From a virus, in IMG/VR virus record IMGVR_UViG_3300045988_111617: 64,000 bases of DNA, one strand, 5' to 3'. Each line of letters begins with the position of its first letter. Positions within the stretch are counted from its first letter, which is position 1. Below, in pieces: positions 61,942 through 62,423 of the stretch. Made by a program: the position numbers and the translations under genes. The notes under the pieces are model-generated. The model did not search any database and was not told the origin of the DNA. It saw only the letters and a program-made list of their open reading frames with translations.

Positions 61942-62423
61942 TTTATTAATCTTCTACTCTTACTTTTGTATATAAAAGTCCCTAAGCCAGAGTTACCCAG
62001 CTCACCTTGCTGTTACCAGTAGGTTTATCCTTAAAATTTCAGTATGGCGTTCTTTTATCCCCCTATAGACCTTTTACCCTCAGCCTTTTCTCATACAGAT
62101 TGGCAGGTCACATACATTATATTTAAGGACAGTTTTCACATAGGGTCATATCCTTCCCACCCTATCCAGTACCAGGCTTTCATTGCTTCCAATAGCAGCT
62201 GGCAGAGGTGAAGATTCTGTAGTATCTTCAGTATTGCAAAGGTAAGTAAAAAAACTGACATATCCAAATATATAAATGATTTTTTTTTTCTTTATTTTTT
62301 TTTGTTTTTTTTTTAATTTTTTTTGGATTTATGTAGATGGAGGATAACCCCCATCCACCTCCCCCAGCCATCAACCAATGGGGGTTAGTCCCCCTGTATG
62401 TTTAACTTTAATCCTTATTTATT
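61942..62423. other. 480-bp non-coding strand-switch region: moderately GC-rich core with short TCACATA / GGTCA direct repeats, four poly-T tracts (T10, T9, T10, T8) and a 10-bp inverted repeat TAACCCCCAT...ATGGGGGTTA
   Basis: No ORF of 60 aa or more on either strand. Divergent gene orientation on both sides. T tracts at about 62276-62326 and IR at about 62347-62396, all seen directly. Confidence 0.5.

Follow-up and report, generated by a model that had tools for sequence, protein, structure and literature searches.

A predicted structured RNA downstream of a Bacteroides-type promoter at the divergent gene junction of a crAss-like phage

Among the phages of the human gut, Crassvirales are the most abundant group. 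Promoter-proximal elements that make RNA polymerase read through terminators are described from phage lambda, in the late leader (PR'-qut-6S RNA-tR'), and from HK022 (put), while phage-encoded structured RNAs near tRNA genes are exemplified by ROOL, GOLLD, and the species 1 and 2 RNAs of T4. In the crAss-like phage phi14:2, the virion RNA polymerase transcribes the early genes, the host RNA polymerase serves the middle and late genes through sigma-70-like promoters, and abundant long non-coding early transcripts arise from the g004-g005 and g005-g006 intergenic regions (Drobysheva et al., bioRxiv 10.1101/2020.03.07.982082). For crAss001, the published study (PMC8375218) places the early operon, including the TROVE protein, to the right of the junction and the late, structural genes in the left-hand half, and it includes strand-specific RNA-seq of the infection.

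The DNA analyzed here, referred to as the window, comprises 64,000 nucleotides of the IMG/VR virus record IMGVR_UViG_3300045988_111617. Judged by protein matches and gene order, it belongs to a crAss-like phage of the Steigviridae/Asinivirinae that is a distant relative of crAss001. For the product of a 108-aa gene and for a short stretch of DNA, matches are confined to Kehishuvirus (crAss001, cr112_1, PhiCrAssBcn and tikkala), with ~42% amino-acid identity and the same synteny, the early operon is syntenic with crAss001 gp1 and its early operon, and the window contains giant ORFs of 2411, 2083, 1912 and 1352 aa. Genes switch strand at 14.3 kb and at 62 kb; the leftward block of ~47 kb (61941 down to 14400) includes structural genes. 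Intergenic spacers within this block contain terminator-like hairpins (56191-56171 and 51580-51553), which are compatible with a cis-acting leader that affects elongation, antitermination or stability of the late transcript. On the basis of synteny and of the gene classes of crAss001 and phi14:2, we interpret the gap at 62 kb as the junction from which the early operon and the leftward block diverge. The features of this junction and its surroundings are the following:

58249-59985, minus strand: array of 12 tRNA genes
61615-61941, minus strand: 108-aa gene, first protein gene of the leftward block (ATG at 61941; contains HELVH)
61942-62423: non-coding gap of 482 bp between the minus-strand 108-aa gene and the plus-strand 120-aa gene
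61956-62232, minus strand: putative structured RNA of type A, its predicted transcript starting at ~62232 and reaching the last hairpin at 61956
62237-62268, minus strand: Bacteroides-type promoter TTTG-N20-TACCTTTG (-33 TTTG at 62268-62265, -7 TACCTTTG at 62244-62237)
62280-62324, no strand assigned: four T8-T10 tracts (A tracts on the minus strand) between the divergent units
62334-62398, plus strand: C/G-run module with ATAAC, CCACCTCCCCCAGCC at 62355-62369 and the hairpin GGGGG-TTAGT-CCCCC at 62380-62394
62424-62786, plus strand: 120-aa gene, first gene of the rightward (early) operon (ATG at 62424)
62796-62827: intrinsic terminator after the 120-aa gene

The original prediction, made for this locus from its sequence, described a non-coding strand-switch region of ~480 bp, and we indeed find 482 bp without a credible ORF between divergent genes; the small proteins flanking the gap have no matches in Pfam. 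Its description as the largest gap of the genome holds in part: once tRNAs and ATG ORFs of 45 codons or more are masked, the gap ranks first or second in the window, and the interval 62787-63317, which is larger, is free of ATG ORFs; a TTG ORF is present there, and relatives have genes called in it. The predicted GC-richer core is real, though only somewhat richer (0.38-0.44 versus ~0.33), and the four T runs are confirmed in both number and length, as T10 (62280-62289), T9 (62295-62303), T10 (62305-62314) and T8 (62317-62324).

Relatives of the locus were fetched with the 108-aa gene as anchor. A protein search with its product returned 23 clusters at 69-100% identity, and the contigs compared come from nine clusters that were fetched, together with one IMG/VR contig and three metagenome contigs. 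Every relative that has both flanking genes on the contig retains a gap of 470-720 bp between the divergent genes. The left 290 bp (~61956-62232) is the best-conserved segment of the neighborhood, with 90-99% nucleotide identity, while the flanking coding genes of the same relatives are 72-96% identical; a structured RNA would account for a non-coding stretch that is better conserved than the genes beside it. In two lineages (L004 and L005), the right-hand early gene together with its upstream module is wholly replaced.

The minus strand at 62237-62268 reads TTTGGATATGTCAGTTTTTTTACTTACCTTTG, an exact match to the -33 TTTG / -7 TAnnTTTG consensus with a spacer of 20 nt, where primary-sigma promoters of Bacteroidetes are recognized by TTTG and TAnnTTTG ~19-21 nt apart. 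Transcription is predicted to start at ~62232, a few bases downstream of the -7 box, and the promoter would be used by the host RNA polymerase. Further copies are located in the window at 2212-2243 (plus strand), 59013-59044 (minus) and 60259-60290 (minus), with a near-match at 2979-3009 (plus), and the extended motif TTTTTTTACTTACCTTTG recurs at 2226-2243 (plus) and 60259-60276 (minus), each time just before an ORF. These other copies lie 9-31 nt before ORF starts, and for recurrences before other genes the distance to the ATG is 9-25 nt, whereas the promoter in the gap is separated from the next ATG by 296 nt. The promoter is invariant in all relatives, including those in which the ~300 nt downstream of it are different, and a promoter of the same type is found upstream of the RNA core (described below) in 21 of the 22 distinct variants, at a distance of 99-160 nt in 20.

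The left ~290 bp of the gap, immediately downstream of this promoter, is predicted from comparative sequence analysis to encode a conserved folded RNA with multiple helices. Its elements, all read on the minus strand, are as follows:

62230-62225 / 62214-62209, minus strand: predicted helix P1
62208-62190 / 62185-62166, minus strand: predicted helix P2
62165-62159 / 62146-62140, minus strand: predicted helix P3
62131-62122 / 62035-62026, minus strand: predicted helix P4
62115-62111 / 62046-62042, minus strand: predicted helix P5
62109-62106 / 62071-62068, minus strand: predicted helix P6
62024-62017 / 62012-62004, minus strand: predicted helix P7
62003-61996 / 61991-61984, minus strand: predicted helix P8
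61979-61972 / 61963-61956, minus strand: predicted helix P9
61985-61978, minus strand: conserved 3' motif UUAGGGAC of the type-A RNA
62000-62137, minus strand: RNA core domain P4-P5-P6-P7, common to Kehishuvirus, Mahlunavirus and other crAss-size IMG/VR contigs

The core contains the near-invariant single-stranded blocks AUGAGAAAAGGCUGAGGGUAAAAG and UAGGGGGAUAAAAGAACGCC, and in nearly all variants it is followed by a [U/A]AGGGA[U/C] motif. RNAalifold applied to the minus-strand alignment of 11 type-A sequences yielded 6 compensatory pairs. Refinement of the structure by hand for the type-A set (n=11) gave 76 pairs in 12 helices (99.6% paired), with double compensatory changes at 8 pairs in 6 helices, a level reached by 0 of 500 shuffles and compared with 0-1 in slid controls; owing to the close similarity among the type-A sequences, few of these events are independent. 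After the addition of other lineages, 23 of the 32 core pairs covary. An alignment of 24 distinct sequences from IMG/VR crAss-size contigs to a second covariance model (R2) shows compensatory changes in 26 of 32 pairs (202 cells), with 89% of the cells paired and up to five pair types per position, compared with 7-14 pairs, 19-43 cells and 29-47% paired in slid-partner controls, and these values are to be read with the provision that pairing is favored in the wide alignments, because they were fitted to the model. Covariation supports helices P4, P5, P6, P6a and P7; support for helix P6b was sought in the 24-sequence alignment and was not found. The G.U pairs fit only a reading of the minus strand. 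The folding energy is unremarkable (z = -1.2 for the whole RNA and -0.4 to -2.5 for the cores), and with thermodynamic stability this weak the case for a structure rests on covariation.

The RNA is distributed beyond the close relatives of this phage. A covariance model of the type-A core only (R1; 138 nt, 62000-62137, minus strand) matches crAss001 (MH675552 817-948) and cr112_1 (53-54 bits, E ~1e-10), as well as cr128_1 of Mahlunavirus (70 bits, E 1e-15). The R1 and R2 models match crAss001, cr112_1, cr128_1 and 40-odd IMG/VR contigs with E-values from 1e-7 to 1e-31, all model E-values being rough owing to a shortened calibration. The core matches in crAss001, cr112_1 and cr128_1 are all situated in unannotated gaps; in crAss001 the RNA covers ~700-990 of MH675552, without annotation, and a box of the -7 type (TATGTTTG) is present at ~670. 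A 20-mer of the core occurs in 49 IMG/VR contigs, mostly of 92-104 kb. Two further IMG/VR members (L017 and L018) share the block GAGAAAAGGCUGAGGGUAAAAG and keep P1, P2, P4, P5, P6 and P7 by means of different sequences.

A scan of the window with Rfam 15 at gathering thresholds returned tRNAs only. A permissive scan of the minus strand of the gap (E up to 10) gave nothing credible, the homologous loci of cr112_1, cr128_1 and tikkala have no match in Rfam, and ARAGORN found no tmRNA. An apparent likeness to RNase P (GAGAAAAGG, AUAGGGUGGG and CUGGUAACAG) was dropped, as no RNase P model scored. We also discarded an origin of the RNA from the host: in a search limited to exact matches, the P3 26-mer has none in 185,579 bacterial and archaeal genomes. 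In the passages of the literature consulted, which deal mostly with crAss-like phages and cover the field incompletely, the RNA is not described.

In L009, L015, tikkala and cr106_1 (Mahstovirus) we found a different sequence of 300-370 nt, termed here type B, which occupies the same place behind the same promoter, and these four members have conserved blocks in common. Homology between the two types was rejected, since two covariance models miss type B and only short motifs are common to both. RNAalifold on type B had four sequences to work with, too few to settle the structure. Because crAss001 and tikkala both belong to Kehishuvirus and yet differ in RNA type, the locus behaves as an exchangeable cassette.

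On the other side of the promoter, the four T tracts follow each other with a start-to-start spacing of ~10-11 bp and constitute 4 of the 8 A/T homopolymers of at least 8 bases in the whole 64 kb; the cluster is probably intrinsically curved and easily melted DNA. The lengths of the runs vary by indels among relatives, and Kehishuvirus, Mahlunavirus, Mahstovirus and the L017 lineage have clusters of A/T tracts at the corresponding position. The other promoter copies in the window have no such tracts, and therefore the tracts belong to the junction rather than to the promoter type.

The C/G-run module, which has one copy in the window, spans an inverted repeat at 62345-62354 / 62378-62387. This is the 10-bp palindrome of the original prediction, the arms of which (TAACCCCCAT and ATGGGGGTTA) are as predicted, while the spacer between them is 23 nt long, not 29. 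As a general feature the repeat was dropped: its retention, with one compensatory change, is restricted to this lineage and Kehishuvirus, while in the other lineages the G run pairs with a downstream C run. What is retained more widely, namely in Kehishuvirus, Mahlunavirus, Mahstovirus and the L017 lineage as well as in this one, is ATAAC and CACCTCCCCCA together with a hairpin of the form GGGG-N3-5-CCCC, at 25-75 nt before the ATG of the first early gene. The module is a candidate early promoter or 5'-leader element of the early operon, and jointly with the T tracts it may be the region that the virion RNA polymerase recognizes. We know of no promoter motif for the virion RNA polymerase. Hairpin promoters of the N4 type are expected in several copies; here a conserved hairpin precedes the first early gene in several lineages, and the module is present once in the window. 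For the early promoters of phi14:2, no motif common to them was found (bioRxiv 10.1101/2020.03.07.982082).

Analysis of the region downstream of the core reveals how the RNA relates to the genes behind it. In 20 of the 22 variants no terminator is present and an ORF starts 39-100 nt past the core. From one lineage to another the ORFs are not related (108, 195, 49-53, 126, 150, 83 and 61 aa), and together these observations argue for a leader that is independent of the gene that follows. In this phage no terminator was found between the RNA and the ATG at 61941, so that the transcript would run into the 108-aa gene and the RNA would be made as the leader of the leftward unit. Variant layouts include a 180-nt insertion with a small ORF between the RNA and the 108-aa gene (L016), and the arrangement of Kehishuvirus, in which the RNA with its own promoter is placed after, not before, a 101-aa gene. 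In the remaining 2 of the 22 variants (L017 and L058), a strong intrinsic terminator follows directly after the RNA, and in L017 a -7-like TATCTTTG lies ~20 nt before the next gene, a layout that looks like a free-standing RNA gene. Since the layouts vary in this way while the RNA always heads the leftward block, it appears to be a unit tied to the promoter and not to a particular gene. Regarding the features expected of a riboswitch, a conserved core of the size of an aptamer is seen, the downstream genes are unrelated between lineages, and no expression platform (terminator/anti-terminator) was seen after the core.

Taken together, we regard it as probable that the gap is a divergent control region, comprising a promoter, a leader RNA, T tracts and the C/G-run module, in which the RNA acts in cis. 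The host-type promoter at 62237-62268 would fire leftward, and the first ~275 nt of the transcript would form a structured RNA with a 5' hairpin, a long-range P4-P5-P6 domain, the single strands of which are near-invariant and purine-rich, and 3' hairpins. This RNA may act in cis on its own transcript or on the polymerase, rather than on one specific gene, either by controlling elongation or antitermination or by stabilizing or processing the long late transcript. The phased T tracts would separate the two divergent units, and the C/G-run module with its small hairpin, preceding the first early gene, may be part of the initiation of the early operon. Our best guess for the function of the RNA is thus that it acts, as a leader close to the promoter, on the transcription unit of the late genes. 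A more specific version, in which it is a cis switch for the timing of late genes in crAss001-like phages that makes the host RNA polymerase resistant to terminators or licenses elongation over the ~47-kb block, is speculative and we consider it rather unlikely. If true, phages of Bacteroidota would have in this leader, acting by itself or together with a middle protein of the phage, an RNA-based equivalent of lambda Q/qut or HK022 put, and type B would represent a second class of specificity. The position of the RNA at the head of the late block of crAss001, a cultivable model phage, makes it a concrete testable element for late timing.

An alternative that we hold as a tentative possibility is a free-standing, trans-acting stable non-coding RNA, released by processing or by the terminator where one is present, e.g. 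a Ro60/TROVE partner like Y RNA, a stable RNA linked to the tRNA cluster in the manner of T4 species 1 and 2, or an RNA with a host-directed or anti-defense role. The terminators directly after the RNA in L017 and L058 and the -7-like box before the next gene in L017 point in this direction, as do the placement relative to the 108-aa gene, which varies between genera, and the existence of two RNA types at one locus even within Kehishuvirus (crAss001 versus tikkala); a swappable RNA cassette is equally consistent with a leader and with an accessory RNA that acts in trans. Two conserved elements, the 5'-terminal hairpin and, close to the 3' end, the motif [U/A]AGGGA[U/C], may be the marks of stabilizing and processing ends, and the early operon of this species contains a TROVE gene. 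That gene, however, is missing from cr128_1, tikkala and seven PhiCrAssBcn phages, all of which have an RNA at the locus, there is no match to Y RNA or to another Rfam family, and most variants (20/22) read without a terminator into an ORF. A processed, trans-acting stable RNA is nonetheless nearly as likely as the cis-acting leader that we favor. That the conservation is due to coding, i.e. that the gap hides a small or decayed protein gene, is in our estimate highly improbable. Both strands allow ORFs of 39-55 codons and the composition of the minus strand is similar to that of coding strands, but all six frames contain stops of all three kinds, so no reassignment of a stop codon would rescue a gene. 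Moreover, a 43-codon ORF on the minus strand is broken by a 1-bp indel relative to all close relatives, a 55-codon ORF on the plus strand is broken by a 1-bp deletion in L010, and the substitutions are compensating changes in helix pairs, without a period of three. The small ORFs were ruled out on the strength of these stops and frame-breaking indels.

The original prediction offered an origin, a promoter hub or a non-coding RNA locus. The latter two readings are supported by the host-type promoter on the minus strand, the covarying RNA and the module before the early operon, while the reasoning for an origin or packaging region did not hold up. We consider it doubtful that the part with the T tracts and C/G runs is a replication origin and/or a genome end (a DTR boundary or a packaging signal); in a variant of this proposal the leftward transcript might prime or activate replication. 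The cumulative GC skew indeed has its minimum at ~62 kb, with the maximum at ~14 kb, but both coincide exactly with a switch of gene strand, at 62 kb as at 14.3 kb, which makes the turn uninformative by itself. With respect to an AT-rich element, AT-rich tracts are present, the phased and easily melted T-tract cluster is unique in the window, and the skew turn matches the gene-strand switch; the lengths of the T runs, on the other hand, drift freely. For Carjivirus communis, the literature predicts origins at the strand switch. What the search for iterons (at least 3 conserved direct repeats) turned up in the gap were repeats of 8-17 nt with no more than two copies, which do not exceed chance and are unconserved, and no DnaA box (TTATCCACA-like) is present in 61942-62423. 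The "iteron-like" TCACATA and GGTCA likewise turned out to be two-copy 5-7-mers at chance level (we estimate, without a dedicated tool, ~7 exact 7-mer pairs per 480 bp), and one TCACATA copy is unconserved, being lost in most close relatives (TGTGAAAA changed to TGTAAAAA). As to a terminus, crAss001 packages DNA with a direct terminal repeat of 576 bp, the position of which is not given in the paper, its GenBank record starts inside the early gene gp1, and the L010 contig ends inside the C/G-run module. Against this, the distance between the module and the first early gene is fixed, as it would be for a promoter or leader, and RNA pairing, including the G.U pairs, accounts for the conserved core. 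Thus, the probability that the T-tract and C/G-run part contains an origin or a terminus is low, and neither would explain the conserved core.

Comparison of the favored leader RNA with known systems shows similarities of arrangement to several of them. Like the lambda late leader and put, it directly follows a host-type promoter and heads a block of ~47 kb, is independent of the gene that follows, and has terminator-like hairpins inside the block; like lambda 6S RNA, which ends at tR', it is followed by a strong terminator in two lineages. Unlike them, it has no similarity in sequence or structure, so that the analogy is one of position only, and put consists of two short stem-loops (~70 nt), whereas the RNA described here has multiple domains and ~275 nt. 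In common with ROOL, GOLLD and the T4 species 1 and 2 RNAs, it is structured, encoded by a phage and near tRNA genes, lying 1.7-3.5 kb upstream of the 12-gene tRNA array with the same direction of transcription, and it resembles the ROOL/GOLLD group in the high conservation of its single-stranded regions. It differs from ROOL and GOLLD in having no Rfam match, in being much smaller and in usually lacking a bounding terminator.

The long non-coding transcripts of phi14:2 share with our locus a position in a large intergenic region near the early end of a crAss-like genome. They are early, rightward, rifampicin-resistant and made by the virion polymerase, whereas the RNA of this phage is on the opposite strand, has a host-type promoter and heads the late block. 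With regard to Y RNA and Ro60, TROVE is encoded 3-8 kb from the RNA locus in this species, crAss001, cr112_1 and cr106_1; unlike Y RNAs, the RNA occurs also in phages without TROVE and has no Y-RNA or tRNA-like module, and an obligatory link to TROVE/Ro60 was rejected on account of the phages listed above that keep an RNA at the locus without the gene. The RNA is a member of none of the groups represented by the lambda/put leaders, ROOL, GOLLD, and T4 species 1 and 2. We rate it, with the conservation, covariation, strand, promoter linkage and spread across genera documented above, as a new family of a known general kind, namely the promoter-proximal structured RNAs of phages, and as a candidate for a new Rfam family.

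The locus that in the window encodes the predicted structured RNA (type A) is occupied in other Asinivirinae by a second RNA-sized element of 300-370 nt, termed here type B, which looks unrelated and has the same position and the same host-type promoter. It was located in four relatives:

L009, 2658-3003: type B element
L015, 522-835: type B element
L022 (Kehishuvirus tikkala), 2060-2378: type B element
L023 (cr106_1), 2050-2424: type B element

The conserved blocks common to these elements include AUGAGAGAAUAAAGGGUAUCAU and ACUAAUAnUAUAUAAC. The type of RNA differs even within a single genus, as seen from the comparison of crAss001, which carries the type A core, with K. 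tikkala.

The leftward block begins with a gene for a 108-aa protein (window 61615-61941, minus strand), which has a HExxH-like motif (HELVH) and matched no Pfam family; in the homologous region of crAss001, the ORF annotated in GenBank (gp2, 279-680) runs along the opposite strand. In one relative (L016, 1470-1658) the RNA is set apart from the 108-aa gene by about 180 inserted nucleotides that include a small ORF, which shows that the two are separable.

Further copies of the host-type promoter motif TTTG-N20-TAnnTTTG are present in the window, each with an ORF 9-31 nt downstream:

2212-2243, plus strand: promoter motif copy
2979-3009, plus strand: promoter motif copy
59013-59044, minus strand: promoter motif copy
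60259-60290, minus strand: promoter motif copy

They often have a T-rich spacer that ends with ACTTACCTTTG, and they are likely to be middle or late promoters. The leftward block also contains an array of 12 tRNA genes (58249-59985, minus strand; Met, Thr, Leu, Phe, Cys, His, Ile, Trp, Asn, Ala, Pro and Gln), in which no suppressor tRNA was found, and interspersed among them is a 152-aa ORF with a weak match to DUF5856.

Within the early operon of the window, the next intergenic region holds two copies of the 12-nt direct repeat TTAGCTACAATT, 44 nt apart (62840-62851 and 62884-62895, plus strand), downstream of the terminator at 62796-62827. Kehishuvirus possesses an analogous pair, AGCATTAGTAGTAT / AGCATTAATAGTAT, in the equivalent position (L001, about 4760-4800), and the pair following the terminator may function as an operator or as a site for early regulation. 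Among the relatives examined, the sole iteron-like feature is the direct repeat TACCACGCTTATG of the L017 lineage, with two copies about 58 nt apart (8670-8684 and 8728-8741) among the A tracts of the junction; the window lacks this pair. The 28.7-kb Logan contig of another relative (L010) has one end (its position 1) at the equivalent of about window 62366, within the C/G-run module that precedes the first early gene; this could be coincidental or due to the assembly breaking at homopolymers, or it could hint at a physical DNA end.

In the window's species (L003), the early operon encodes AAA ATPases, a glucosaminidase-domain protein, an HNH protein and a 469-aa TROVE (Ro60-like) protein (L003 4345-5754, minus strand; past the window end, at some 6.6-8 kb rightward of the gap), which shows 68% identity to the TROVE protein of crAss001.
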